Shown here: one piece after another, positions 4,101-56,330 of the stretch
Position numbering within the stretch: the first letter of the stretch is position 1
Layout: each line of letters begins with the position of its first letter
NCBI GenBank assembly: GCA_965203275.1
Contig: OZ241865.1
Span: forward strand, 1,376,001-1,440,000
Reading direction: 5' to 3'
Length of the DNA: 64,000 nucleotides
From: Bdellovibrionales bacterium
Lineage (GTDB): Bacteria > Bdellovibrionota > Bdellovibrionia > Bdellovibrionales > JAUICD01
Translations under genes and position numbers: made by a program
The notes under the pieces: model-generated
Told to the model about the DNA's origin: nothing
What the model saw: only the letters and a program-made list of their open reading frames with translations
Database searches by the model: none

Positions 4101-4385
4101 CAGGCTATGGATGCTCATCCTGTAAAGAACTTACAAGATTTAAAATCAATAATTATTCAAGCTGGTACACGTCGCATTCGGCCTTTGTTGATGACAACGA
4201 TGACAACTATTTTTGCACTTTTACCTGTGATATGGTCAACCTCAACTGGCAGTGAAGTGATGAAGCCTATGGCTATTCCTACACTTGGTGGTATGTTGGT
4301 GGAGGTGATTACTCTTTTTATTGTTCCTGTGCTTTTTTCTTTTACATATCAATTTCACTTTAAAGAAAACTCTAATATTCACTAA
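1128..4385 (+). CDS. cusA: CusA/CzcA family heavy-metal RND transporter
   Basis: 1085 aa with PDLGENQQIVFTEWPGRSP, LGPDATGLGQIFWY, RRIRPLLMT and GSEVMKPMAIP. The stop codon lies inside an element-A end (cacTAA). Confidence 0.93.
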   Translation: MFKLINLSIQYRKCTVALFMLIALTSIIAIQNSNIDIIPDLGENQQIVFTEWPGRSPQDIEAQITYPLSTLLQGIPGVKTVRATSAFGFSTIYVIFESHTDFYWSRSRIIEKLIHTQSQLPSGVQPQLGPDATGLGQIFWYSLEYSQKQEDQTSQPQSLAHLRTLQDFYVKYHLQSVEGVSEVASVGGFVKEYQIDVDPQKLFAFDVHFSTLIQAIQNSNIDVGAKIIEDGDREFIIRGKGFFRSLADIENTVIAIKNKTPIFIKDVAHVNTGPAFRRGVLDKNGFEVVGGVVTMRYGENPQKVIQNIKEKLQEIKQGLPQHVHIIPFYDRTEPINNTMTTVYTALTQQVLLATLIVFLFLLHIPSAFLVSLTLPLAIAISFILMKCIGIESHIMSLSGMIIAIGTIVDMGIIMTENIYQKLSLHRPENKKQQIQIITSAAKEISPAIMTSITTTIITFLPVLALQDIEGKLFWPLAWAKTFTLLGSLIVAVLLIPALSVFFFQNIKTQNKDSASHSQNPLAKGQAHSNKALWHKFIFEKHFSNEVIENIHAWIHQTYKQALTWVLDHRKLFLIAPAVLLILGIIAWTQLDEEFMPEVNEGDILYMPVTTPDISISKARELLSYTDKIIKEHPLVEFAVGKLGRANSALDPAPIAMMETIIKLIPQSQWSQKGFRGQNIYDVMEDLDQALQIPGLVNSWGFPMQTRIGMISTGIKTQVGIKIFGDDISVLEKLSSQVAQEIKKIKGAYGVYQEQITSKPYIEFNIDRVAAAQYGINIGTIQTILQTAVGGMPIGQFYEGRQRYAIRVRYKKELRDRIDQLKTVLVPSPVISNGVNQHIPLNQLADIRVVTGPAQLSSENGILRSLVLFNVRDNDLVSFVEKAKALIEEKIHLPTGYSLSWAGQYENHTRANNYLKILLPLVLIVNLIILFLSTRSFSYSLIIFSAVPIAMTGGLILLWLTGFHLSVAVWIGFIALFGIAVDDGILMITYLKQAMDAHPVKNLQDLKSIIIQAGTRRIRPLLMTTMTTIFALLPVIWSTSTGSEVMKPMAIPTLGGMLVEVITLFIVPVLFSFTYQFHFKENSNIH

Positions 4386-4962
4386 AAGTGGTCTGACCTC
4401 TGGTCACTTTTAGTGAAACAAACTCCCTAACCCCACCCACCGCCCTTCGATTCTGCTTTTCTATTTGTATGTTTTTTTATGAGTGGAATGCGATTGCAGG
4501 CTTCCGAAGTCCTCAATTGAGCTTGCTCCTTAAAAGCAAGCTCAATTTGCGGAAGATCTTCAGCCTGCCCCCGCTTCCCACTCATAATATTCTTCATTTT
4601 TTTGAGAGTTACGCAGAATCTAAAAAGAATAAAAAAATAAAAAAACGAAAATCTTTTTCCTTAACATGGTGTCAAGAGACGAGAGGATCCTCCCTACTAA
4701 AAGTAAACTGACCTCTGGTCACTTTGGGTAGCCAGCCCGACGGCTACCGCCGTCGATCAAAGGCTGGCTACCTCAGTCCGTTTACTTTTCGTTTTTTAAT
4801 ACGATGTTAAGGAAACAAGATATTTATATTTATTTCACTCCCGGGATCCGGGATCAGGCAATCTGGCATCCCGGGATCTGATGCCGGGCTACCGGATGCC
4901 AGATCCCGGATCCCGGATCCCAGATCCCGGATCCCGGATCCCAGATCCCGGATCCCGGGATC
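4378..4962. mobile_element. Structured-repeat cluster 1: fold-back A end, inverted module B, hybrid A, heptamer array
   Basis: cactaaaagtggtctgacctctggtcacttttagtg at 4380. Reverse B at about 4425-4625. A body at about 4696-4820. GATCCCG repeats at about 4838-4962. Confidence 0.75.
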
Positions 4963-5163: not shown

Positions 5164-8153
5164 ATGAAGTTTATTCAACAGCTCAACGATCTAACTATCT
5201 GTAGATTGTTTACATGCTCTATCTGTTTATTTGTGATCGGTTGTTCCTTTATTGCTTGCGGAGAAGCTCCTATGCAAGAACATGGAGCTTTAGACCCTGA
5301 AGCCCAAAGGCGACTTGCTAACCCAGAAGAAAATCGGGAAATATTACGCAGAGAACTTGAAGAAATACAAAAGAGAATGCAAGAGGCTGCTCAGGAGGCT
5401 CAGGAAGCTCAAGAGGCTGAAAGCCAAGACTCGTCTACCCCCCCCCCCCCCCCCCCCCCTCCAAATCTTTAACCTCACAAGCTATTGAAACTATTGAGTT
5501 ATCTAGTAGTCAACCTGAAAAAAGTGGATGGTTTTCGTCATCTTGGAACTATCTTGTAGATAAAGGGTTTAGTGCAACACAAGCTGTAAAAGACTACGTC
5601 AATGACTTCACTACTGACGATGCAGAGAACAACACAATGAACCCTCGAGAATATCAAGAGTTATGGGAGAAGATAAAAAAGTGGGAATCAAGAACTTTTA
5701 AAGATCGAGAACTCATGAGAAAAAACAAAAGTATATACAACAAATTCATGAGTTTGCCTCCAGGTAACAAAGTGTTGATTGAAGATACAATATACGATTT
5801 AGATGAAATGCCAGATGATCTACGCACGGCTATACAAAAAATAGAATCTGAAGATGATACCTTAAAAGAAGAAATTGCTCAAGCGTTATATCCTTTCCTT
5901 TGGATTCAGTCTGTGGATGTAACTAATGTCAACAATGATTCAATATTACGTCCCATGCCATTACCTTTCACCCTATATCGGAGTATGCATGATGACAATT
6001 ATACTCCACAAGAAATTATAAATGCCATACAAGCCTTGATCACACTGGGAGCTGATGTAAACAAAAAAGAAAGGAATCGAATTAAGATGAAGCCTTTACA
6101 TTATGTAATAGATAATATGAGGGATGAGAGGTTAGCATTAGAAATAGCTAAAATATTGATTGATGCTGGAGCTGATGTTAATTATAGCGATAGACAGGAG
6201 TGGACAGCTCTGCACTGTGCTAGCCGGAGAGGATTTTTAGAAATAGTTAAGCTATTACTAGATCATGGAGCTGATATAGATACACAAGGAAGGGAGTGTA
6301 ATATCCTATGTCGCACAATAAGGATAGCAAGAGACCCAGACAAGAGAAAACCACAACATCAAGAGATTATAGAGTTATTGACTGCTGTTGAACAAGAACA
6401 AGAAAAAAAAGATGAAGGAAAAATTTTTCTTCGTCCCATGCTCACTCCAACCGAACAAGAAGAACAAGAACAAGAAGAAAGATGGAAGGCAAAAAAATGG
6501 AGAAGAGAGTATAACATTGATCAACGTGTCCAACGCTGGACTTCTATGACTCCTGAACAAAGAGCAACAAGTAAATTAACAGATTTTTCTCTTAGCTTTA
6601 CCACATCTCGTCGATGTAGAAGAGAATTCCCTGCAAGCAGACAATGCCTTAAAGTAGAGTTTTTGAGAGATGGTTATAAACAAACTTTTATTTATCCTTC
6701 ACCTATATTAACTGAAGATGAAAGAACTGCACTTCAAACAGTTGAACAAGAGCAAGAGGAATATAATGCACAAAAGGAAAGAGAAGCAGTAGAAAGAAGG
6801 GAACGAGAAGCAAGAGAAAGAATGGAACGAGAAGCGAGAGAAAGAAGGGAACGGGAAGCAAGAGAAAGAAGGGAACGAGAAGCAGCAGAAAGAAGGGAAC
6901 GAGAAGCAAGAGAGCGGAGGGCAAGAGCAGAGCAACCAAATCAAGGGCAACGAACAAGCACCCAGTCTGATCCAAGAAGTCAATGGGCTGCTGATAGAGT
7001 CCGTTTAACTCAAGTCAGAGCAGCTTTAGAAGCTCCTCATGTCAATGCTTATGCTATCACACATGTTAAGCTTTTCCCTATTGCTAAACCACGCTTAGAC
7101 CCCTACCCATTTACAAGAGACGAAGATATGGCACATCTGTCTTTGAAAAACAGAAATGACGGATTTACCTTAGAAGTATTTAACCCTGAGCAACCAGAGC
7201 AGAGCAAAGTTGTTCTAGCTCAAAAAGTACATGATATTGAAATGAGCATTAGGTGTCATAATCAACTCAATTGTAATGAAAATATTCTTCGTTATAGATC
7301 TAATGTTGATCAAGATAGCCAGTGGCAAACGTATCCTCTTTCTAACTTGATAGGATATGAGAATGGCAACAATGTTTATCAGATGAGAATAATCTCAGAT
7401 AAAGAGCATGGAGATACTCAAGTGAGATGGGGTACAGGTCGCCGTCGAGTGAATAGATATTATAGAGGTCACTTTCGTATAGCTATTACTAAGAGAAAAA
7501 GCAATGACATGATGGAATGGAGCTTGATCAATGATGTTCCCGTAGAACAATATCTTCGTTCAGTTGTTCCGGGTGAGATGCCATTGACAGATGATCAAAG
7601 TGCTTCAAGGACTGCCTTTGCTGCTTTAAAGGCTCAAGTGATAGCAGCCAGGTCATATCTTTTCAGTAAGATCAAAGAGAATAGACATGTCAAAGCAATG
7701 GGATGGGATGTGGATCCTACAACATGGTTTCAATCTTATCCAGGTTCTAGAGAAGTAAGAAGTGGCAGAGTAAGAAACAGAGAATTTTTAAGAAGCGATG
7801 AAGCAGTGGAAGCCACAGTGGGTGTGATCCTCACATATCGAGGACAGTTAGCTATGACAGAATATCATGCTTGCCGAAGAGATAGCACAAGAACAAGTAA
7901 CAGTCTACCTATATTTAGAGCAAAGAAGATTCCAAGTGGAGAGAGATGTGGTCGTTACAGAGGTGAAGGAGGTCATGGTCGTGGTTTATCTCAGAGAGGT
8001 GCTATGTGGCTAGCCCGTGTAGGATGGGACGATGAAGAATCACCTACAGAAAATGCCGCCAAGCCTGAAGATGTTACAGAGCCATGGAGTCATGTTGATA
8101 TTCTTCGCTACTTTTATCACGGAGTCAATGTCCAAAATCACCACGAGCTTTGA
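5164..8153 (+). CDS. Frameshifted (phase-OFF) putative lipoprotein: ankyrin repeats + EREARERR repeats + SpoIID/LytB domain
   Basis: ORF 5164-5472 has a lipobox-like FIAC and ends just after C22 (5438-5459). The frame of ORF 5637-8153 is open back to the tract (SKSLTSQAIE...ENNTM). Ankyrin motif WTALHCASRRGFLEIVKLLLDHGAD. SpoIID motifs EQYLRSVVPGEM, ALKAQVIAARSY and GHGRGLSQRGA. Confidence 0.8.
6777..6925 (+). repeat. 24-bp coding tandem repeat (EREARERR, about 6 copies)
   Basis: gaacgagaagcaagagaaagaagg-like units. Confidence 0.85.
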
Positions 8154-8555
8154 TTCACTCAAAATAAATCATGCCTCTGGCATGTTTTCTGGCAGTTAGC
8201 CCGACGGCTACCGCCGTCGATCAAAGGCTAACTGCCTAGAAAATTCATTTATTTTGAGTAGGGAGGATCTCTTCGTCTCTTAACTACATGTTAAGGAAAA
8301 AGAGTTTCGTTTTTTTATTTTTTTTATTCTCTTTTAGATTCTGCGTAACCTCAAATAAAAAGTAATTTAGAGGGAGGATGGGGCAGTGTGGGCCTGGAGA
8401 TCTTCCGCAAATTGAGCTTGCTCTTTAAAAGCAAGCTCAATTGAGGACTTCGGAAGGCTCACACTGCCCCATCCTCAAGTAAAAACAAAATGGAAAGGCA
8501 GAATCGAAGGGCGGGGGGTGGGGTTAGGGAGTTCCTTTAGATCCCGGATCCAGGG
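8154..8555 (+). mobile_element. Most complete structured element: module A + tail + module B + G-rich end + short heptamer run
   Basis: A core 8156-8259, ttaac...gttaagg tail to about 8305, B 8337-8505 (GATTCTGC...GCAGAATC), G-runs 8509-8529. Confidence 0.78.
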
Positions 8556-8587
8556 ACTAGCTTGTTAGAAAATAAAAAAATATTCTT

Positions 8588-15130: not shown

Positions 15131-16150
15131 TTTGTTTCTCTAAAAGTGGTCTGACCTCTGTCTCACTAAAAGTAAACCAACCTCTGTTTCACTCAAAGTG
15201 AACTGGCCTCTGTTTCACTAAAAGTGGTCTGACCTCTGGTCACTTTCTGGTTGCCAGCCGAAGGCTATCGTTCACTCAAAGTGAACTGGCCTCTGGCCAC
15301 TTTTGGACAATGACCGCAAAGGCTTTCGCCTTTGACAAAATGGTCATTGTCTCAAAAGCCTGTTCACTTTGAGTAAGGAGGATCTCTTCGTCTCTTGACA
15401 CGATATTAAGGAAACAAGAGTTTATTTCACGTCGATAAAATGATCATCGCCTAGAAAGCCTGACCACTTTTAGTAGGGAGGATCTCCTCATTTTTTAACA
15501 CCATGTTAAGGAAACAAGATTTCTTTCTGATGCCGGCTTGCCGGACTGCCGGATTCCAGATGCCGGATTCCGGATTGACATGATGTTAGGGAAATAAGAT
15601 GTTCACTCCCGGGATCTGGGATCCGGCAATCTGGCATACCGGGAACTGATGCCGGATCCCGGGTTGCCGGATCCCAGAAAAAATCAATTTTAACTTTAAG
15701 TGTTTTTACACAACTTGTATAAATAAGCTCCTAATTTATCAGCTTGTTTTGTTTCACTAAAAGTGGTCTAGCCTCTGGCTACTTTCTGGCGATGACCACG
15801 ATGGCTTTTGCCATCGATAAAATGGTCATCGCCTAGAAAGCCTGACCACTTTTAGTAGAAAGGATCTCTTCGTTTTTTAACACCATGTTAAGGAAAAAGT
15901 TCTTTTTTTTTGTTTTTTTATTTTTTTTAGATTCTGCGTAACCATCAAACAAAAAATAATTAGGGAGAGGATGGGGCAGTGGGAGACTGAAGATCTTCCG
16001 CAAATTGAGCTTGCTCCTTAAAAGCAAGCTCAATTGAGGACTTCGGAAGGCTCACACTGCCCTATCCTCAAATAAAAATAAAATGGAAAAAAGCAGAATC
16101 GAAGGGCGGTGGGTGGGGTTAGGGATAATCCTTTTGTTGCCGGGGTCCCG
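15131..16150 (+). mobile_element. Structured-repeat cluster 3: stacked A 5' ends, full and partial A copies, degenerate heptamers, four-helix-bundle 3' fragment, A+B element
   Basis: 26-nt-period heads at 15138/15164/15190/15216. Full A from 15273. A+B from 15755 to 16124. Confidence 0.78.
15696..15752 (-). pseudogene. 3' fragment of a four-helix-bundle gene
   Basis: Translates as TKQADKLGAYLYKLCKNT*. Same sequence at 35557-35613 (+). Resembles the last helix of this family. Confidence 0.5.
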
Positions 16151-16277: not shown

Positions 16278-16420
16278 GTTCACTAAAAGTAAACTAGCCT
16301 CTGGCTACTTTTGGACATTGCTCTGACAGCTATCGCTGTCCAAAAAGAGCAATGTCTCAAAAGTCCGTTTACTTTTAGTAGAAAGGATATCCTCATTTTT
16401 TAACACGATGTTAAGGAAAA
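16278..16420 (+). mobile_element. Single module A inserted between promoter and start codon
   Basis: Absent at the equivalent position upstream of paralog 29823-34286. Confidence 0.8.
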
Positions 16421-16422
16421 AA

Positions 16423-19400
16423 ATGTATATATACAAAAAGTTTATTTATTTAGTTTGGTTTTATTTTTCATTTGTACAAATATTTGCACAAACACTTCTG
16501 CAAAAAAATTGCATAACGCAATTAGCCTACCCCCCCCCCCCCCCCCTTAAGTCCAGGTTTTGATTGTCTTAAAAAAAATCATTTTAAAAAGTGCAAACAG
16601 CTAGGGATGGGCTTAGTAGAGATGTTGATTGTGATGACCATGCTTGCCTTAATCAGTGTAGGTACAGCATATTACTTCACACAAAGTCAAACAGTGATGC
16701 GTTCATCTGCACAAGATTCAGATTGTCAGAGCATTGCCCAATCAGGTTTAGATAGAGTTGTCTCATTAGGGACTCGTCTTTATGGATATAGAGTAGGTCA
16801 TACTGACCCTGATCTTAGATATAACCCTCTTTTTATCAAGAGAGGAACTCAAATAACAGGTAGCACTCCAGTAGCTTATCGGATTACAGATACAAGCTCT
16901 GGTAATAATTTAAGCCTTACAAAAAAATATAAGGATTTATACAAAGCATTAACAAATAACACTCCCCCTGCCCTGCTTGTGAATACAGGAGTTCCTTTAG
17001 TAAAGCTTTCTAATAGTGGCTTTATTAATATAGGTACATCTGTGTTGCTGGTTAATTCTGTGAATTTTTTGCAGTATATGTATAATTCTGACCCTGCATT
17101 TTTTAATGGTAATAGTGGCAAAGGTAAAGAATTTACCATTACCAGTAGCACCCAAGCAAGTAATAAAGTGATAGCTTCATTATGGAAGGACTATCTTAAA
17201 AAGTACAACCTTCAAAATGTGAAATTCTACATCAGGATTAACCCTGTTGATCTGAAAAATCAAAAGGTGATAGAGAGTTATTCAGGTATTAAATGTCATT
17301 ATACAAGATATAATGGTTCAAAATTTGTCTCAACAGAGATTCCTTGCCCACGTCCATCCACTCACCCGGCACATAAGTTAGTGTTGACTCATCCTAGGCT
17401 TGCTGTTTCTGGGACTTCAACCTTAAATAGCTCATCAAATTTACGCACCATAGGCAATCCTGATTTAGGATTTCAGGTGACAGTTAAGTTAAGTTATGAA
17501 AAGAATAATCAGGATTATTTTTGTAAGAGCATGCAACGATTTGCTCACCAGACTCGTTTATTGATGGAGCAGACAACTCCAATTAATGTTTCAGTGACCT
17601 CCCTTAAGAATGACTATAACAAGAATTTACTACCTAATGGTGGTCGTAAGCAGACTTCATGTGACACAGATGACATAAATGGTACAGATGGTCATAGAAA
17701 CATCACCATGGAGTTAAATTTTGATAATACAGCCGGCAGAACAACTAAGGAGTTTGGAACATTATTTTTATGTCGTGGAATACGTTGGAAGTATCCTAAA
17801 AGAGGTTGTAACAATACTGCTTCAAGTGAAAAAATATATGGACCTTGGCGGAGATGTCATGAAGTGAAATTTCCAGATCAAAGAGGTCATACAGAGTCTG
17901 TTTTATTAAATAGCAGTGGCCATGATATAAAGCTACGATTAAAATTTAATAACTTAAAGGAAGATAGAAGCTATGCCTTAGAGATTGCAGAGGTATCGCA
18001 ATTAGGTATTTCTAAACCACCTTATCAGCGTATAACAAATAGTCGCTTTTATATAGATGCTACAAGACCTACATTAATTGCAAGTATAAATGATATTGAT
18101 GTCGGTCCACCAGAAGATATGCGAAGAGGAAGATCTTATTTATATAATGGCCATACAACAAATTGGGATTTACCTGAGGTTCGGTTTAAATATAATAGTA
18201 ATTATAAAAAAGGACCTGGTTTGCAGTGCAATGACGATGCTGTTGACTTTCATGGTTGTATTATTGATGAGTTTCATCATAATTTAGGAGACTGCACTGC
18301 AACACATCAGAGAGAAGATGGTAATGGCCTCTCATCTATTACTAGTGTTACCATGACTACTGACACCTCACAACATGCTTGTAGTGGTACTTTAAGTTCG
18401 CCGATTCCACATGGTCAACAAACAGTGAAGATCACTGCCAGTGATATTTGTGGCAGTGATCCTGAGTCCAGCGATCAACTTAAATGGGATACAGACCTTC
18501 CAAATACATTTGTTGCCAGACCTTTTCCAACAAGTCCTCATTGGCTTTACCGAAATGCTAGTAATGCTAGACCAAAATATACAATTCAAACACTCGTACC
18601 AGCTTCAGGGGCGGGTACATTCCCGAAGCATTATGCAGTGACATGTTATGGAAAGCAATACGGATATCATCCAAGAAAAGATGGGAATGGAGGGAGTATT
18701 GCTTGTGAATTTTATGGCAGTCTGAATAGTAGTCACTTAGATCATGATGGTTGCAATCCTGCAGACTTCGGGGTGAAGTATCATCATATTTGTGGTCGTA
18801 ATTCTGCTGTGCAAGCAAAAAAATGGGGTGTGTATGTGGCACATCCAAGTGCTGGTGGTGGCCTTTGTGACAAAGTACCTTGTGAACCTAATTTGATATG
18901 TTGTGATAAAAGTAAAGGTACTTGTGGAACTGGAGCAAGTGTAGGTGATAAAAAATGTGCTAACAAAGTAAGCAACCCAAGGTGTACTGATCCTAAAGGA
19001 GGTACACAGTCTAAGGACGATGAAACTCCATCTGGCTGTTCACCGCTAGGCCTCTATGACTGTCATTATACTTTGCCCTGTGAAGGAGATGCAGGAGAGC
19101 TAAAAAATAGAAGAGATAATGGTGTTGCTTGTAATGAAGATGGTGGTAAACGTGAAGGCGATGGATGTACTTTTAATAGAACTGGTCAGTGTAAACATAG
19201 AAATAGTTCCATAGCCCAGGGAAATAAACACTCTCAAGGTGCTATTCAAGCACATCATGGTGGTGATTGTCATCTTAATGGTAATTCAGAAATACCATGT
19301 ACTGTTCAAGCACAGTGTAAGCAGAAATATAAATATGCAAAAAGGAGCGACTCATGTGAATATCCTGGTAACCTTCCTGATGATCCACCTATAAAAAAGG

Positions 19401-20664: not shown

Positions 20665-20965
20665 GCACTCAAAATAAATCATGCATCTGTTTCCCTAAAA
20701 TTGAACTAGCCGTCATTTTCACTCAAAATGCATCATGCCTCTGGCATGTTTTTGGGCAATGACCGCAATGGCTTTCGCCATTGGCAAAATGGTCATTGCC
20801 TCAAAAATCTATGCATTTTGAGTAGAGGAGGATATCTTCGTTTTTTGACTACATGTTAAGGAAAATATCCTTTTAATACCAGTTAGCCCGACGGCTACCG
20901 CCGTCGACCAAAGGCTAACCGCCTCAAAAGCTTGTTCATTTTGAGTAGAGGAGGATCTCCTCGTC
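20665..20965 (+). mobile_element. Structured-repeat cluster 4: two stacked heads, full A, partial A
   Basis: cactcaaaataaatcatgcatctg, ccctaaaattgaactagcc, then cactcaaaatgcat...atgcattttgagt. Confidence 0.75.
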
Positions 20966-20997: not shown

Positions 20998-21975
20998 TTA
21001 TTTTTTCAGCTTGAGAATGTCATTTTTAGACAAACCTGTCATTGTAGAGATCAATGAAATATTAAGATTTTCTTTTAACATATTTAGTGCTATTTTTTCC
21101 ATTCCTTTCTCCATCCCTTCCTCACGACCCTTCTCAATACCCTTCTTAAAACCCTTCTCCATCCCTTCTTCACGACCCTTCTCAAGACCTTCTTCACGAC
21201 CCTCGTCACGAACAAATTCTTCTCTGTCTACTTGATCCCTCCTAGCTCTCTCTTTCACCATATCAAGCTCTTGTAATGTCTCATCTTTTGATAATACCCA
21301 TAAATGCTCAGCTGCCTCTGCCATGATGCCTCCTTTATCTTTGAAATACAAATATTCCTTTTGGTCCATCTGACCCGACCTCTTTAAAAAATAACACCAA
21401 TTCTCTTTTATGTCAATTAATTCTCCTAATTGGGACTGAAATTTATCTAATTCTACTATCACAAAACTCATACCCCGTGACATCACTACTTCTGGATGCC
21501 CTATCCGACGAATATTGCAAACATGGTAATAGTCCTTTATTCCTTCAAATTCTTTTAAATTTACAGTTGTGAAAACCAATGAATACACGGGAAGTAACTT
21601 ATCAACATTCTCCCCTTTCCTAATTTGACCTGAATAGAGCCGAGATAAATACATCAGTAACCTATCCGTAAAATGCTTTTGAGCTGTCGTTTGAACTTCT
21701 ACATTCGCAGTCTCTGTATTTTGAAGAACGCCATTAATCCTTCTTCTTAACTGTACTCGCAAATCTAAAACAAAAAATTTATACTCCTCTGGGAATTTAT
21801 CCGATGGAAGTTCTGTATTTAATATATGGATGTCTTCTATTACAGAACCCTCTGGCAATGGAAGAAAATTCTCCATTATTGAAATCAAAAGCTTTTTCTT
21901 CCTTGTAAAGAATGCCTTAAAATTACGATCCTGTGTTAAACTTAAATTCTTGCTTGGTTTTTTCATCTTGTACAC
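20998..21975 (-). CDS. Rpn family recombination-promoting nuclease (PD-(D/E)XK) with EKG-type C-terminal repeats
   Basis: DRNFKAFF, LDLRV, NVEVQ, DRLLMYLSRLY, IVELDKF and EGREEG/EKG repeats ending IALNMLKENLNISLISTMTGLS. Confidence 0.88.
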   Translation of the reverse strand: MYKMKKPSKNLSLTQDRNFKAFFTRKKKLLISIMENFLPLPEGSVIEDIHILNTELPSDKFPEEYKFFVLDLRVQLRRRINGVLQNTETANVEVQTTAQKHFTDRLLMYLSRLYSGQIRKGENVDKLLPVYSLVFTTVNLKEFEGIKDYYHVCNIRRIGHPEVVMSRGMSFVIVELDKFQSQLGELIDIKENWCYFLKRSGQMDQKEYLYFKDKGGIMAEAAEHLWVLSKDETLQELDMVKERARRDQVDREEFVRDEGREEGLEKGREEGMEKGFKKGIEKGREEGMEKGMEKIALNMLKENLNISLISTMTGLSKNDILKLKK

Positions 21976-27612: not shown

Positions 27613-28545
27613 GTTCACTAAAAGTGGTCTGACCTCTGGTCACTTTCTGGCAATGACCACGATGGCTTTCGCCATCGATAAAATGGTCATTGCCTAGAAA
27701 GCCTGACCACTTTTAGTAGGGAGGATATCCTCATTTCTTAACACGATGTTAAGGAAAAAGATTTCCTTCTGATGCCGGTTGCCAAATCCCGGATCCCGGA
27801 TAAACACCATATTAAGGAAAAAGTTCCTTTATTGCAAGCCACTTGCTCCTTAAAAACATTTTAGAAGCATATCTTGTTTCCTTAACATGGTGTAAGAAGC
27901 AAGAAGATTCGCCCTACTCAAAATGCATAGATTTTTGAGGCAATGACTATTTTGTCAACGGCGTAAGCCGTTGCGGTCATTGCCCAAAAACATGCCAGAG
28001 GCATGATGCATTTTGAGTGAAATGTTAAGGAAAAAGAGTTTCATTGAGATTTCTTAGAGAGCCAAGACTAATATAGTAAAATTTCCTACGATCTTTTGCT
28101 GTAGGTTTAGCAGATCCTTCAGCTAAGTTAAGTACAATACTTGAGACAGCCCTTCGAAATTGACTTCTATGAGGCTCTTTCAGATGTAATTTTTTAGAAT
28201 TACGATAAAATTGAGTAGCTAATTGATAAGTTTTGAATTTTTGTTTTTGTTTCACTCAAAATAAATCATGCCTCTGGCATGTTTTCTGGCAGTTAGCCCA
28301 ACGGCTTATCGCCGTTGATCAAAGGCTAACTGCCTAGAAAATCCATTTATTTTGAGTAGGGAGGATCCTTTTTTTTTCTTAATACCATGTTAAGGAAAAA
28401 GTTCTTTTTAAACCCGCCAGGGCTTGGGAGGAAATTTTTTAGATGCAAAAATTCATTACAATCAATACTCTGGAACCTGATCCCGGATCCCTGATCCCGG
28501 ATCCCGGATCCCAGATCCCGGTTCCCGGATCCCGGATAAACACCT
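27613..28545. mobile_element. Structured-repeat cluster 5 between holB and tmk, containing a four-helix-bundle fragment
   Basis: Forward A about 27616-27765, heptamers, reverse A about 27877-28020, forward A about 28253-28405, heptamers 28476-28537. Confidence 0.78.
28025..28255 (-). pseudogene. Truncated four-helix-bundle protein (TIGR02436/23S-IVS/Avd-like fold)
   Basis: FKTYQLA...QFRRAVSSIVLNLAEGS...DRRKFYYISLGSLR. Both ends of the ORF are element sequence and the last helix is missing. Confidence 0.75.
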
Positions 28546-29272: not shown

Positions 29273-29712
29273 TGTCTCACTCAAAATAAATCATGCCTCT
29301 GGCATGTTTTCTGGCAGTTAGCCCGACGACTACCGCCGTCGTAAAAGGCTGGCTACCTCAAAAGTCCGTTTACTTTTAGTAGGGGAGGATCCTTTTTTTT
29401 TCTTAATACCATGTTAAGGAAAAAGTTCTTTTTAAACCCGCCAGGGCTTGGGAGGAAATTTTTTAGATGCAAAAATTCATTACAATCAATACTCTGGAAC
29501 CTGATCCCAGATCCCGGATCCCGGGATCCCGGTTCCCGGATCCCAGGATCCCGGATCCCGGTTCCCGGATCCCAGGATCCCGGATCCCGGATCCCGGATC
29601 CCGGGATCCCGGATGAATACCATATTAAGAAACAAAAGGATCTTCCCTTACTTGAAATGAACGGCATGATGCATTTTGAGTGAAAATGACGGCTAGTTCA
29701 ATTTTAGGGAAC
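29273..29712. mobile_element. Structured-repeat cluster 6: chimeric A, long heptamer array, inverted heads
   Basis: A at 29278-29430. GGATCCC array at about 29500-29614. Inverted heads at 29660-29712. Confidence 0.75.
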
Positions 29713-32800: not shown

Positions 32801-34286
32801 GAAATTTCACTTCATGACACTTCTGCCAAGGACCTTTTGTAAAAGAACAACTTGCCCATGGATAAGAATTACAACTTGAAGACATGAGATAATTAGTTGT
32901 GCTATCACCACTTACACAACCCCTGACCCCTCGACATAACAAGACTGTTCCAAATTCTTTTGACCTGCTCTGAGGAAACTTCAAGTCCATAATAATATTT
33001 TTGTAATTAGAGCCATCTGTATCACACGAAGTTTGTTTGCGTGAACTCAGCAGTAAGTCCTTATTATGACCATTCTTGAGGGAGGTAACTTCTACACTGA
33101 CAGGAGTTTGATTTCCTTCTACAAGCATTCTTGTTTGATGAGAAAATCTTTGCATTGCATTGCAAGAATAACTCTGGTTTTCTTTTTCATATTTTAACTT
33201 AACTGTCACTTGGAATCCTAAGTCAGGATTACCTATGGTACTTAAACCTGAATTACTGCTTTTGATTCTAGTTTTAAAGGCTGGACTCCCTGATACAGAA
33301 AGCCTAGGATGAGTCAATATTAATTTATGTGTAGCAGGTGAACGTGGACAAGTCACAGGTATTGATACAAACTTACTGCCGTCATACTTTGTCTCTTTAC
33401 ATTTAATATCTGCATAACTTTCTATGACTTTTTGATTTGTAAGATCAACAGGGTTAATCCTGATATAGAATTTCACATTTTGAAGGTTGTACTCTTTAAG
33501 ATACTCCTTCCATAAAGAGGCAATTCTTCCATCACTTGTTGTGGTGCTACTGGTAATGGTAAACATTTTACCTTTTTTGTCTTCGTCCAGTTCATTTGCA
33601 TCAAAAAATTGAGGGTCGGAGTTATATAAAAATTGTAGAAAATTAACAGCATTCAGCAACAAGACAGATGTACCTGTCTGAACAGAAGAACCAGCATTCA
33701 CTTTCACCAAATCCACTCCGGTATTGATAAATTGAGATGGAGGGTTGCTATTGATCAATTCCCTGTATAATTTTGTATACAGCGTTGGAGTATTTAAGCT
33801 AGTGCCTGAACTGATATCGTTAATCTCATATTCAGCTGGATTTGTGCTGGCAATTTGAGTGCCTTTTTTAATAAGCAGTGGATTATAATCATAGCCAGCT
33901 TTGTATCCGTAAAGACGAGTCCCTAATGAGACCACTCTATCTAAACCTGATTGGGCAATGCTTTGACAATCTGAATCTTGTGCAGATGAACGCATCACTG
34001 TTTGACTCTGTGTGAAGTAATATGCTGTGCCTACACTGATTAAGGCAAGCATGGTCATCACAATCAACATTTCTACTAAGCCCATTCCTAGCTGTGATTG
34101 TGGTTGTGGCTGGTTGCACTTTTTAAAATGATTTTTTTTAAGACAATCAAAACCTGGACTTAAGGGGGGGGGGGGGGGGTAGGCTAATTGCGTTATGCAA
34201 TTTTTTTGCAGAAGTGTTTGTACAAATATTTGTACAAATGAAAAATAAAACCAAACTAAATAAATAATCTTTTTGTATATATACAT
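29823..34286 (-). CDS. Giant Cys-rich type IV prepilin-like surface protein, in frame (phase-ON, C16)
   Basis: 1487 aa. YPPPPP is encoded by the tract (G16 at 34164-34179 on +). QLG|MGLVEMLIV, an Asp/Ser tract and a duplicated TPVCNNNTRNSC module. Confidence 0.85.
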   Translation of the reverse strand: MYIYKKIIYLVWFYFSFVQIFVQTLLQKNCITQLAYPPPPPLSPGFDCLKKNHFKKCNQPQPQSQLGMGLVEMLIVMTMLALISVGTAYYFTQSQTVMRSSAQDSDCQSIAQSGLDRVVSLGTRLYGYKAGYDYNPLLIKKGTQIASTNPAEYEINDISSGTSLNTPTLYTKLYRELINSNPPSQFINTGVDLVKVNAGSSVQTGTSVLLLNAVNFLQFLYNSDPQFFDANELDEDKKGKMFTITSSTTTSDGRIASLWKEYLKEYNLQNVKFYIRINPVDLTNQKVIESYADIKCKETKYDGSKFVSIPVTCPRSPATHKLILTHPRLSVSGSPAFKTRIKSSNSGLSTIGNPDLGFQVTVKLKYEKENQSYSCNAMQRFSHQTRMLVEGNQTPVSVEVTSLKNGHNKDLLLSSRKQTSCDTDGSNYKNIIMDLKFPQSRSKEFGTVLLCRGVRGCVSGDSTTNYLMSSSCNSYPWASCSFTKGPWQKCHEVKFPGQLGSTNSTFLDSSGNDINLRLKFNDLPPNRRYELEVIEASQLGVTNPRQIGKVGNVVKSRFYIDARRPTSEVGFKHGEDDVGQPGDGVKGRNYSSSSPTTSWRLPSNGLQCNRNNVDFEVGICDQFTHNLENCTKLGRRRDGTGTTNTTSSINMTIGAPAGHAAEVRCEGTLSGIQHGRQTVTIIPKDVCGGSSNNTLIWDTDDPDTFEAQNFSFSNNNTRWFKNRDKKEYSILTKVPSNSTAGKFPKHYSVDCHQSQCVRTRKDGNGSPINCELTTQDLLTDHDGCNPNNVGVKYYHICGGTSVKVAKWGVYVSPPGSGRGRGGSCQYVPCESGFVCCDATRPYCNGVDYARCGDPDPGGKTECSNPKGGTQSNTDQTASGCPPLGLNTCTYTLPCKGTAEGLTETNTGSGPCHGKRRNTSCEFTEPGKCKNNDIGRGGYDKNKGDLKKGFCYLNKNNRKSTKTCDSVRVKCRWKYNLAAQDDEDKCGKTGIPPNENPVKCLLDGNGGPHKSDEEPDGDEGENQGKCQGSSRSCDLEVVGKQDIDGECKAVGPGSCSVEFKNGTCLRHTGNGCTQNNPRLEVNDLQEKCSLRPACGGTPLPNPTPDNTPDPHGACGRGCTGSYCAESAGCATNEPFTCHVRDVNGTCYPSCGYAAHLIGYGSYGAEPDAESNTNEADDSHIASSIDCNELSKHGTGRGGWMHVDPPSTSLGVGDIWEIKEGTMNHCCYRTSVPSSDSDDDSDDSEDSDEDSDSDDDSDSDDDSDSDDEESDEDSDDSDNSNSQTPVCNNNTRNSCRRGTANDNSLADTATKYKWHCVLGGNTVPCSKTKEADSNSNPNSNSQTPVCNNNTRNSCSRGTLRQVPDTTTHYKWSCVHGGNTVSCSKTKESTPTCTGTGQYNDESSCTSVSGNDTCKQQNGCWVRGDPVNGSCHSTDQNNCYLCGGGGGLDQGTQLCLPEGGESPYFNCSWDCKGLNGGTRITCRLDYLTSC

Positions 34287-34404: not shown

Positions 34405-35661
34405 CCCAGAATCCGGGATTCCGGGATCTGGGATCCGGAATCCGGCAACCCGGCATCTAAATGAACTTTTTCCTTAACATGTTGTTAAAAAACGAGGAGA
34501 TCCTTCCCTACTAAAAGTGGTCAGGCTTTCTAGGTTGCCAGCATTTGAGAAGGCGATAGCCTTCGGCTGGCAACCAGAAAGTGACCAGAGGTCAGACCAC
34601 TTTTAGTGAAACAAATCCTTCAGTCTCCCACTGCCCCATCCTCTCCCTAATTATTTTTTGTTTGATGGTTACGCAGAATCTAAAAAAAATAAAAAAACAA
34701 AAAAAAAGAACTTTTTCCCTAACATGGTGTTAAGAGAAAAAAGGATCCTTCCCTACTCAAAATAAATGGATTTTCTAGGCAGTTAGCCTTTGATCAACGG
34801 CGATAAGCCGTTGGGCTAACTGCCAGAAAACATGCCAGAGGCATGATGCATTTTGAGTGAAACAAACCCTTAACATGTTGTTAAAAAACGAGGAGATCCT
34901 TCCCTACTAAAAGTGGTCAGGCTTTCTAGGTTGCCAGCATTTGAGAAGGCGATAGCCTTCGGCTGGCAACCAGAAAGTGACCAGAGGTCAGACCACTTTT
35001 AGTGAAACAAATCCTTCAGTCTCCCACTGCCCCATCCTCTCCCTAATTATTTTTTGTTTGATGGTTACGCAGAATCTAAAAAAAATAAAAAAACAAAAAA
35101 AAAGAACTTTTTCCCTAACATGGTGTTAAGAGAAAAAAGGATCCTTCCCTACTCAAAATAAATGGATTTTCTAGGCAGTTAGCCTTTGATCAACGGCGAT
35201 AAGCCGTTGGGCTAACTGCCAGAAAACATGCCAGAGGCATGATGCATTTTGAGTGAAACAAACCCTTAACATGGTGTTAAAAAATGAGGAGATCCTCCCT
35301 ACTCAAAATGAGCAGGCTTTTGAGACAATGACCATTTTGTCAAAGGCGAAAGCCTTTGCAGGCAACGCTCAAGGTGTAAGAAGGAACTTTTTCCTTAACA
35401 TGTGGTCAAGAGACGAGAGGATCCTCCCTACTAAAAGTAAACGGACTTTTGAGACATTGCTCTTTTGGGACAGCGTAAGCTGTCAGAGCAATGTCCAAAA
35501 GCAACCAGAGGTTGGTTTACTTTTAGTGAGACAGAGGCTAGACCACTTTTAGTGAAACAAAACAAGCTGATAAATTAGGAGCTTATTTATACAAGTTGTG
35601 TAAAAACACTTAAAGTTAAAATTGATTTTTTCTGGGATCTAGGATCCGGCAACCCGGCATC
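34405..35661 (-). mobile_element. Structured-repeat cluster 7 (about six reverse A copies, partial B, 396-bp tandem duplication)
   Basis: 34472-34867 is repeated at 34868-35263. Further A copies run to 35556. Heptamers occur at both ends. Confidence 0.78.
35557..35613 (+). pseudogene. 3' fragment of a four-helix-bundle gene
   Basis: TKQADKLGAYLYKLCKNT* between an element head and heptamers. Confidence 0.5.
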
Positions 35662-53161: not shown

Positions 53162-53344
53162 GCCTTTCTACAAAGCTATCTCAAAAATCCGTTTATTTTT
53201 AGTAGGAAGAATCCTTTCCTCTTTTTTCAGTTTTAGGACCTGATGCCGGGTTGCCAGATCCCAGAAGAAGGATCCCTTTTATTCTGAAAATTGGTATACT
53301 CCTTTAAATCCATACCAGCAAATCTTATAATTTAAAAAGGCAAA

Positions 53345-53637
53345 TTATTTTTTCAGCTTGAGAATGTCATCTTTAGACAAACCTGTCATTGTAGAGATCA
53401 ATGAAATATTGAGATTTTCTTTCAACATATTTTGTGCCACTTTCTCCATTCCTTCCTTACGACCTTTCTCTACCCCTTTTTCCATCCCTTTCTCCATTCC
53501 TTTCTCCATCCCTTCCTTACGACCTTTCTTCATCCCTTTCTCCATTCCTTCTTCATAAGCACCCTTTTCTCTGGCTGCTTGATCTTTTCTGTCTCTCTCT
53601 TTCACCATTGCAAGCTCCTGTAATGTCTCATCTTTTG
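53345..53637 (-). pseudogene. C-terminal fragment of an Rpn gene truncated by element A
   Basis: KDETLQELAMVKER...NMLKENLNISLISTMTGLSK matches the C-terminus of 20998-21975. Homology stops at the element head near 53638. Confidence 0.8.
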
Positions 53638-53975
53638 TTTCCCTAAAATTGAACTAGCCGTCATTTTCACTCAAAATGAGCCACACCTCTGGTGTGTTTT
53701 TGGGCATTGCTCTGACAGCTATCGCTGTCTAAAAAGAGCAATGCCGCAAAAAACTGCTCATTTTGAGTAGAGAGGATCTCTTCGTTTCTTAACACCATGT
53801 TAAGGAAAAAGAGTTCTTTCTGATGCCTGACTGCCGGATCCCAGATCCCGGAATCCCGGATGAACACCATTTAAGGAAAAAGTTCCTTTCTTTTTGTTTT
53901 TTTATTTTTTTAGATTCTGCGTAACTCTCAAAAAATGAATATTATGAGTGGGAGGCGAGGGCAGACTGAAGGAGT
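53638..53975 (+). mobile_element. Structured-repeat cluster 8: stacked head, full A, heptamers, half of module B
   Basis: CACACC-tct-GGTGTG variant. gattctgcgtaac B start at about 53913. Confidence 0.75.
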
Positions 53976-54237: not shown

Positions 54238-56330
54238 ATGTACACTACAGCGTTTCAGCAAAAAATGCGGGGGGGGGGGGGGGGCAGTGCGTCAAAATGT
54301 CTGTGGTCCTCATTCTGTCTTGTTTGCAGGTGTTTTTAGAACCTGTGGAAGTCTTTGCCAGGTCTGATACCTCTCGCGTAAAACCATCTAAAGTTACAAA
54401 TACCAGAGTTAGTAATTCCCGATCTAGTAGATCAAGGGTTCAACGTTCAAGAGCTTCAAATGCCAGAGTTAAAAAACGCACTTCTTCTAGAGCAAGAAAA
54501 GAAAACAGGGTAAGAAGACAAAACACAAGATTATCTCTTGAGGCTCGCTGGAAGCGATTGCCTGTCAAACAAAAAATCAAGTTATATCATTCTATGGTCA
54601 GAACTATGGCTGTCTTAGAGTTATCTCGTCGTCAACGTTCTACAAAAACATCCTCCCTTTATCCATTTTGGCAATTATTTATAGCACAAGCTTATGCTCA
54701 AGCTCCATTCTCTGAAAAATGTTTTTTTGGAGGACATGTTTTAAGTGGTTGTCGTTGGGGTGCTGCAAGGAGAGACTCTAGTAAAAGATGTACATTAACT
54801 GGTGAGTATGGTGCTATTCTTAATGGTATTAAATGTAATAGTGAAATATTCCCTACAGCCCCTTGTGTTCAGGATTTTAGAGATGTAGGCGGAACTCGGA
54901 GAAAAACCTATAGCACCACTCAAGCTTGTGCCTATGCTGATGCTCAATTGATAGCAGATCAATTAAAAAATAGTGGCTCTCTTGATCTTGATGCGATCAC
55001 TCCAGAGCAGAAAAATGCCGTTTTTTGGGATCAAATCATACCCGGTGACTTATGGGCTTCAGGTAACCCCGAAGACTGGATTGAACAAAGAGATCAACTT
55101 ATCAAAGACACCTTAGGCGGGAATGATGCAATGACTCGATACAATGTAGCTCTTTTAAATGCGACAGATGGTAATATTGTAGAACGACTTGAAGATGTGG
55201 AAGCAGCGTGTAGGCTTAACCATGTACAAAATCCCTTTGAACAGAAACACTGCGATGTATTTATAAATGATTTTAACGTGTTAAAAGAAGCAAAAGAGCA
55301 GAGGAATTGTTTTAAATTTCATAAATTACCTGGGGAGCATTTCTGTCAAGTCAGAACCACAACTGGTGTTAGAGATGACGCTACTCATAAATATCGTGTT
55401 GTACGCCTGGAAAAAAGCGGAGATGATGAACAGAGCAGGTTAAAAGCTGTTGTTTATCAAAGCGAAAGCGGTCCGGCAGGAGACTACTGTTTGGATTCCA
55501 GTTTCACTGCTCATGATAAACATGTTGATAATACGCAGCTGACTAATTTTTCCAATCTGACTTATCCATCACAAAAAGAACCAGGACTTGCATGCAATCG
55601 AGGTCAGAGCCATAGTGCAAGCTTTACCTATCAAGGCCATGAGATTGAAATAAAAAAAGAACATGGTCCAAGCAATCGTTGTTTATTCGATGATGATATT
55701 GATGATATTGATAGAGATTTAGGCAATGATCAGACTGATCTGTTTTTCCCAGGAATAGCAAATGATGAGAATAATAATATTTATAAGACAGCATTAGAAG
55801 AATATAATAATACAAAAGATCAAGGAGAAAATAAGGATAAATGTATAGAACCATATCATGTCGCCCTTCATGAAGCAGGGCTTCTCTTTTACAAAGCATG
55901 TCCAAATCCAAGTAGCAGAGATAATCTTGTTGCACGGGATCCGAATAAACAAAGTTCTGAATACGATGTTTTCAAGCCTTTATCTTCATGGTTAGCGTTT
56001 CTTAGCTATAAAGATTTTGAGACATTCTCCATTTTTCCTTCTACAAATAAAGAAACTGCTAAACCAATAAATTTTATAATCCCTAATTGTAGTGATGATT
56101 CTGCATGTCGTAAAAATTTAACCTTTATGGACTATTGGTGTGGTATTGGAAATGCCCCTAGTGCTGATGGAACTGAATGCACTAGCCCGGATTCACCAGC
56201 AGGTGAGGGAGAAGGCAGCAATACTTGGACAACAGGATTAGCAAATGAACTCAGACATTGTTCTGAAGCTACACAAGCTCCTCCCGCCAGAAGAAGAGCG
56301 GGTGGTGCTACAGATGGTCTTAGGCAGTAG
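54238..56330 (+). CDS. Secreted Cys-containing family protein, copy 3 (G16 tract)
   Basis: RBS-preceded ATG 54238 is out of frame with ORF 54297-56330 across G16 (54269-54284). Confidence 0.72.

Follow-up and report, generated by a model that had tools for sequence, protein, structure and literature searches.

Module A: A Family of Self-Nesting Structured Repeats in a Bdellovibrionales Genome

Introduction

Module A is a genuine, new family of structured repeats that nest within themselves, and its junctions differ from those of the bacterial repeats known so far. Its reference copy lies at 8154-8299 on the + strand of the 64-kb window (the whole stretch of DNA analysed here), immediately 3' of the TGA stop of an 838-aa ankyrin/SpoIID gene, and is a non-coding unit of about 145 bases. 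The source genome (G000; 2.6 Mb in a single contig rated 90% complete) carries 1,339 matches to module A, 749 of them full length, which add up to 154,956 bases or 6.0% of the sequence.

Architecture of Module A

The predicted fold is a three-way junction with four helices (P1 outer, P2 side with a TCT loop, P3 middle and P4 apical) and a tail. In the reference copy, all of whose parts are read on the + strand, the head (8154-8169) consists of a conserved left end, (T)TC, and the 5' arm of P1. The side hairpin P2 (8170-8184; CATGCC-TCT-GGCATG) has a loop that is a main hot spot for same-orientation nested insertion, and the hairpin scores as terminator-like on both strands. P3 pairs 8185-8201 with 8226-8243, leaving a bulged T at 8237; its arms enclose P4, the apical hairpin (8202-8219), followed by a bulge rich in A (8220-8225). 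The 3' arm of P1 (8247-8259) leads into the tail (8260-8299), which is made up of a variable purine/pyrimidine stretch, a small TTAAC...GTTAA hairpin and a near-invariant ATGTTA(A/G)GGAAA end, and this is followed by a right linker of pyrimidine-rich junction sequence (8300-8309) whose length ranges from 0 to 26 nt across copies. The two ends of module A form an imperfect inverted repeat in which mostly 8-10 of 14 letters are alike. GTAG, a motif internal to module A, follows P1 in 517 of 663 cores, and a perfect 5-bp hairpin comes after it in 138 of the 663. The first-pass annotation had described the sequence and the helices P1-P4 as they are found here, but the tail hairpin that it included, GGAGGATCTCCTC, is not conserved, as the last count indicates. 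In the second species of the genus (G001, introduced below) P2 is often enlarged by a short tandem unit (L009:1870-1905, L006:1230-1260), a side-arm elaboration specific to that genome.

Folding energies for the region 8154-8305 are -67.5 kcal/mol as RNA (z -9.3), -46.3 kcal/mol as DNA (z -11.7) and -71.3 kcal/mol for the reverse strand as RNA (z -10.4), and in each case 0 of 200 shuffles was equally good. Neither strand folds much better than the other. Among the single mismatches of the core, read on the + strand, 97 are A.C and 34 are G.T, an excess that fits either selection on the - strand or copying (wobble) errors from a + template; the tail contains G.U pairs on the + strand.

Covariation and Selection on the Fold

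An alignment of 29 copies (15 from the source genome, 10 from G001 or from loci that belong to it and four from the bin G004, described below) has 97.0% of its cells paired, compared with 80.7% after shuffling and 31-45% with slid partners. Among its 40 core pairs 29 vary on both sides, and one-sided (wobble) changes are rare. Because kin copies can beat such shuffles, further tests were carried out on unique cores. In 365 of these the arms are exactly complementary in 76% (P1), 91% (P2), 90% (P3a) and 91% (P4) of cases, against 16-29% when shuffled, and the alleles of the four helices occur in 169 combinations. The adjusted mutual information between the two arms of a helix is 0.57 for P1, 0.82 for P2, 0.72 for P3a and 0.88 for P4, whereas that of P1 with P4 is 0.21, below any arm-to-arm value. 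When the comparison is made within one inner-helix class, the P1 arms match in 235 of 307 unique cores, and a within-class shuffle gives 143 +/- 7, which argues that the fold is maintained beyond subfamily descent. P1 arms are mismatched in a quarter of the cores, as expected of chimeras.

At the level of these alignments selection on the module A fold is supported. The earlier statement that the fold and not the sequence is conserved is borne out by the two-sided variation and by the conditional P1 test, and all six P1 and all six P2 alleles that it had named are present genome-wide, as are those of P3 and P4 together with a few extra ones.

Copies, Load, and Distribution

A profile built from the 29 copies finds 23 matches in the window, 16 of them full length. 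The first-pass figure of roughly 20 full or partial copies is close to this count and the window copies are real, but the true scale is that of the whole genome. The leftmost group (4378-4815) combines a head fragment, the separate repeat module B and an inverted pair of A pieces. It is followed by a composite at 15140-15514 (+), in which a stack of 26-nt orphan heads and a head-half cut at P4 precede a full copy (15271-15414) and a tail-half remainder, and by full copies at 15753-15896 (+) and 16279-16419 (+). A full copy with a remainder (20718-20965, +) lies 3' of an Rpn (PDDEXK_2) gene. At 27614-28021 there are two full copies that face opposite ways, next to a piece of a four-helix-bundle gene at about 28037-28234; further full copies are located at 28251-28398 (+) and at 29276-29422 (+), the latter a chimera with P1 arms of two alleles. 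The region 34469-35530 (-), in which 396 nt are duplicated in tandem, holds five full copies together with one remainder. An internal fragment (53175-53226, +) and a full copy behind orphan heads at the break of an Rpn gene (53666-53808, +) complete the set.

Only 13 of 939 heads lie inside open reading frames of at least 150 aa, as called by an in-house script. Intergenic gaps that contain module A are 65 of 223 convergent, 61 of 257 divergent, and 57 of 355 and 59 of 448 co-directional ones, and in three of the four gap classes the orientation of the repeat is about even. Contigs from four runs (three studies) pile up on repeat-bearing bins far above unique bins; the height of the pile is not a copy number, and its presence argues against an assembly artefact. 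The contigs of these four runs break at module A copies and gave no usable empty site for strain polymorphism.

The second species of the same genus (G001), with a median protein identity of 64%, has 367 matches, equal to 2.0% of the part read (the first 2.4 of 2.94 Mb). A covariance model finds module A in three of 151 genomes of the order and, in a draw from the phylum, only in the source genome (1 of 151). The third genome of the order, the bin G004, belongs to another genus, and its copies are found solely on three small contigs, with none detected by the model on the large ones. One of the element-bearing contigs carries a second rplB gene, 96% identical to that of G001 and 69% identical to G004's own. 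These contigs are read as misbinned on the basis of such comparisons, and module A would then be confined to one genus among the genomes searched. Within the same bin, contigs C1, C4 and C11 (L049-L052) appear to come from another organism close to G001, and contigs C3 and C5 (L055, L056) are non-coding repeat contigs of eukaryotic appearance.

No module A was found in IMG/VR, PLSDB or INPHARED, and JGI metagenomes returned none and then two chance matches. Pattern matches in GTDB outside Bdellovibrionales, nine of 19 among the matches listed, are likewise put down to chance. No Rfam family exceeds its gathering threshold in the window, the best match on module A scoring 21.2 bits against a cut-off of 60, and the literature searched, which included few subscription journals and no supplements, yielded no published description of the repeat.

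Insertion Junctions and Nesting

The proposal that module A is mobile holds. In 243 intergenic regions syntenic between the two species it is present only in the source genome in 10, only in G001 in seven and in both in none. Filled and empty paralogues were paired for 21 of the 127 isolated full copies in the source genome and for 14 of the 75 in G001, with the limits that some pairs are one event copied, that some empty sites are themselves repeats and that later deletion could mimic loss of target. Across the 35 pairs the outcome for the target ranges between a duplication of 37 nt and a loss of 59 nt (-37 to +59 nt). Set against its paralogous empty site, the window copy at 16279-16419 has cost 8 nt of target and brought a foreign left linker of 7 nt, and that at 28251-28398 replaces 29 nt of its target. 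The sequence broken by the copy at 53666-53808 is uninterrupted in the intact Rpn paralogue at 20998-21975.

The left junction contains 0-14 letters foreign to the target, mostly eight or fewer, and often ends in YTGTT, a left-end motif conserved in both species. The right junction adds 0-26 letters after the tail motif and is pyrimidine-rich over about 20 nt, again in both species. Identical cores occur with different tails and linkers. Three insertions in G001 lie behind one repeated hairpin; each has a left linker of its own, and the hairpin is duplicated. In a wider scan, both genomes show target stretches of about 25-90 nt duplicated next to a copy whose left linker is foreign. Adjacent duplications as a whole accompany 29 of 241 and 35 of 115 non-nested full copies, vs. 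seven and 18 in controls, and many lie in tandem arrays. A derivation of the right linker from the target by sloppy copying was rejected, the weak signal for it being driven by a few true duplications. Upstream of the insertion sites there is no excess of hairpins, and a replication-strand bias is not clear in a genome whose GC skew is weak.

Module A also inserts into itself. Of 939 heads, 513 come after element sequence, and 415 of these share its orientation; the P2 loop is a hot spot, as is the tail on either strand. Nested insertion produces stacks of 26-nt heads, for instance at 15140-15270. Head-to-tail dimers are common, and copies disrupt genes as well as each other. These junctions match no bacterial class with which they were compared.

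Associated Repeats and Genes

Module B is a separate long-hairpin repeat of about 230 nt, present in the window at 8310-8530 (+), 15900-16130 and, in reverse, about 4420-4650. It has 162 matches (23 kb) in the source genome and none by the same profile in the part of G001 read, and it usually follows an A-type tail; G001 has a repeat with a core similar to it. Module C is a GATCCC(G/A) tandem repeat, represented next to the reference copy by a fragment (8540-8556, +); tail motifs follow it in 146 of 1,247 cases. At 4830-4962, 28470-28544 and 29503-29614 of the window it lies near four-helix-bundle genes and often ends in a truncated A-type tail.

Module E is a 152-nt insert with imperfect inverted ends, which in the source genome occurs nearly only inside module A (G000:C1:2552470-2552621 and 17 further sites). 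It occupies one position in A, in 15 complete and three truncated composites with several helix backgrounds, and in nine of the 15 complete composites the P1 arms match, with four alleles represented. Elsewhere in G001 module E is a dispersed repeat, so repeated insertion of E is an alternative to shuffling. One locus holds nine tandem copies of it (array 467087-468463).

Four-helix-bundle genes (PF05635) give 14, 19 and 19 matches in G000, G001 and G004, being multi-copy in G004's own contigs too, and they form dispersed near-identical cassettes with a common upstream hairpin (28037-28234 in the window). The Rpn/PDDEXK_2 family (20998-21975 and 53345-53608) clusters into 87 related open reading frames, many of which comprise the C-terminal part only, and several Rpn genes are cut by module A at the same codon. 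By reading of the open reading frames, the source genome has four CRISPR-cas loci (G000:C1 238802-244554, 371675-376815, 1990534-1994921 and 2268955-2278444); they comprise a type I set, a large nuclease that is type V-like, and a pair of Cas9-like genes, one of which is accompanied by a split cas1. In G001, module A copies alternate with duplicated parts of a tRNA-Arg gene in a tandem array (L003:960-1690), and there are at least eight AAA_14 + DUF4143 genes (e.g., L072:7377-8546 and L078:901-2091). Long poly-C/poly-G runs at 5435-5460, 16527-16547, 34163-34182 and 54269-54284 of the window lie near the starts of large genes and are possibly phase-variable.

Search for a Mobilizing Enzyme

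The earlier suggestion to look for copies linked to an intact reverse transcriptase, HUH/Y1 transposase or recombinase yielded none in the source genome. The Y1 HUH profile PF01797 has no match there (control positive in 6/14), and a custom Y1 profile reaches at best an E value of 0.67; G001 has one Y1 match, which looks like an IS200-type TnpA and has no module A nearby. Neither Pfam (RVT_1) nor a profile made from the reverse transcriptases of relatives detects such an enzyme in the source genome, and reading of the sequences assigns to G001 two group II intron-like reverse transcriptases and one retron/Abi-like one. The Y2 profile PF04986 is blank in five of five genomes, as is its control. 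Searches for an IS110 DEDD recombinase were negative in both species (control positive in 6/14), and those for an AEP primase(-polymerase), Ku and a Y-family polymerase gave no match in the source genome.

Candidates examined one by one were set aside. Two tyrosine recombinases (one of 307 aa, labelled XerD-like by size and context, and one of 187 aa) are not directly flanked by module A, and the junctions are imprecise. The ends of IS1634-like and IS256 elements differ from those of module A, and resolvase ends offered no candidate either. A PF07282 match proved to be a 1,325-aa protein next to genes labelled Cas1- and Cas2-like by reading of their sequences. No open reading frame with a head on one side and a tail on the other recurs in both species. 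Pfam found no transposase, reverse transcriptase or HUH domain in 162 of the 186 shared, basic, non-syntenic proteins from the part of G001 read, and inspection by eye of 17 unnamed proteins of this set produced no candidate. The co-occurrence of Rpn genes was dropped when the element-bearing contigs of G004 turned out to be foreign to it.

How Module A May Spread

The leading account, held tentatively and at a little less than an even chance, is that module A is a repeat spread as a folded single strand (RNA or DNA) by target-primed copying at a nick or break in the target, with an enzyme that was not found. It is ranked first because copying of this kind leaves ragged ends, duplication or loss of variable length, dimers and chimeras in non-LTR elements. 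A copy would be released as a single strand with a head overhang of about 7-8 nt beyond P1 (ending in YTGTT) and a ragged extension of 0-26 nt beyond the tail. A 3' end of the target would join the head overhang through 0-3 nt of microhomology and prime copying, and the far end would rejoin the chromosome at a variable position, upstream to give a duplication or downstream to give a deletion. Where an older copy serves as the target, homology would allow its body to be exchanged for that of the newcomer, with stacked orphan heads and shuffled helices as the residue, and the fold would be kept if only copies with pairing arms are copied again. Against target-primed copying stand the failure to find an enzyme and the fact that adjacent duplications are a minority of the non-nested full copies. 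A more ambitious version is doubtful: it would make module A a new class of bacterial, SINE-like replicator, a 145-nt folded strand written into nicks of the chromosome by target-primed, template-jumping synthesis without a recognizable reverse transcriptase, HUH or DDE enzyme and evolving as a recombining population of swappable helices in one genome.

Several other routes have been weighed. An HUH-type nicking enzyme too divergent to detect, comparable to those of REPINs or IS91-type elements, might cut the head at a fixed distance and join it, with replication running past the tail hairpin and host repair finishing the event. This is unlikely, although the folded arms are almost free of wobble pairs and so suggest DNA, YTGTT marks the left end in both species, GTAG follows P1 in most cores, and REPINs likewise insert in or beside one another and build tandem units that take in neighbouring DNA (PMC3116915). 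The source genome has no Y1, however, the sole Y1 match of G001 is unaccompanied by module A, only 138 of 663 cores retain the hairpin that follows GTAG, and there is no clear lagging-strand bias; the left motif, moreover, is often absent from the empty target and is therefore not a target tetranucleotide. A spread that needs no dedicated enzyme is improbable. Host nucleases (such as the expanded Rpn family or CRISPR nucleases) would then nick hairpin-rich DNA, and Pol I/RecA repair would patch it from another copy, so that the repeat advances by repair and gene conversion. Half of the heads do lie in older copies, alleles are shuffled, Rpn has 14 matches in the source genome and five in G001 with genes often flanked or cut by module A, and no mobilizing enzyme was found; but insertions into unique DNA have reproducible head and tail ends, which general repair would not define. 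Moreover, Rpn genes have no element-like ends, and Rpn is present on G004's own large contig C13, yet the model finds no module A on the large contigs of that bin.

The remaining readings give the host or a resident transposase the leading part. As a domesticated structured RNA or terminator for the regulation of host genes, spreading only as a side effect, module A would explain the scarcity of heads in long open reading frames, the more frequent occupation of convergent than of co-directional gaps and the terminator-like P2 on both strands. None of the 243 syntenic sites is common to both species, though, module A is frequent in divergent gaps as well, the two orientations are nearly balanced in three of four gap classes and copies break genes and each other, which leaves this role very improbable. 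Least probable, and already largely refuted, is a MITE moved by a resident DDE transposase of the IS1634 or IS256 family whose junctions were blurred later. IS1634 of Mycoplasma generates long variable direct repeats, IS1634-like and IS256 elements reside in both species, some IS1634-like copies have a subterminal motif resembling the module A head, and the ends of module A form the imperfect inverted repeat described above. The terminal repeats of both IS families are nevertheless unlike the ends of module A; target duplications have no set length, deletions are frequent, and separate insertions into the same target carry different linkers.

If target-primed copying is the mechanism, it would represent structured-strand insertion outside the transposase classes known so far, and a new DNA-writing activity would belong to the missing enzyme. 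Regardless of mechanism, about 750 full copies with swappable helices amount to a natural mutagenesis of one fold, and a bacterial genome of 2.6 Mb can evidently give up 6% of its length to a selfish repeat. For now the finding reaches no further than a single uncultured genus, in which it covers two genomes and some misbinned contigs.

Comparison with Known Systems

The view that module A is no known REP, MITE or Rfam family stands: apart from its intergenic and nested clustering, the REP/RAYT and MITE features compared are absent, and Rfam gave no match. REPINs and REP-BIMEs with their RAYT (TnpA-REP) enzymes (PMC3116915, PMC6006769, PMC3733652, PMC3333891, PMC2817692) also exist as hundreds of intergenic, non-coding hairpin copies with nesting, tandem units and asymmetric ends, and module A is likewise intergenic, in high copy number and arranged in nested and tandem clusters. 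However, a REPIN is built from two REPs of 20-40 bp, whereas module A is a branched 145-nt fold with four covarying helices, and a palindrome of 20-40 bp with a terminal GTAG or CGTC tag was not seen in it. There is no RAYT in the source genome and no conserved tag-plus-palindrome (cf. PMC6006769, PMC3733652); foreign linkers are found at both ends and the repeat takes up 6% of the genome. Bacterial MITEs (Correia, RUP, ERIC, Nezha; reviews PMC2229807, PMC3184786, PMC10969869) are equally short, non-autonomous, structured, lineage-restricted and high in copy number; module A differs in that it lacks a true terminal inverted repeat, its target duplications have no set length and none of the resident IS elements has ends that match its own.

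Module A has no link to an integron-type integrase and its junctions are imprecise, unlike those of an integron attC or another tyrosine-recombinase site, and the IS110 bridge recombinase has no DEDD counterpart in the source genome or G001. Rickettsia palindromic elements are hairpin repeats of 100-150 nt in host-associated bacteria, of obscure mobility; module A, by contrast, avoids coding regions, nests in itself and shuffles its helices at the level of alleles. With IS91/ISCR and Helitrons it shares the pairing of a better-defined end with one that is ragged beyond a small hairpin, and the carriage of extra DNA, but no Y2/Rep was seen (with a blank control), the left motif is not derived from the target, and both duplications and deletions of the target occur.

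Non-LTR retroelements, SINEs and elements with a template-jumping reverse transcriptase (R2, Mauriceville) produce variable target duplication or deletion, extra letters at the junctions, dimers and chimeras. Module A is bacterial, known from DNA alone and has no poly(A), and the source genome lacks a reverse transcriptase that could act in trans. Its likeness to these elements lies in the variable change of the target with extra junction letters, in head-to-tail dimers and chimeras, and in the joining of different bodies (A, C) to one tail.
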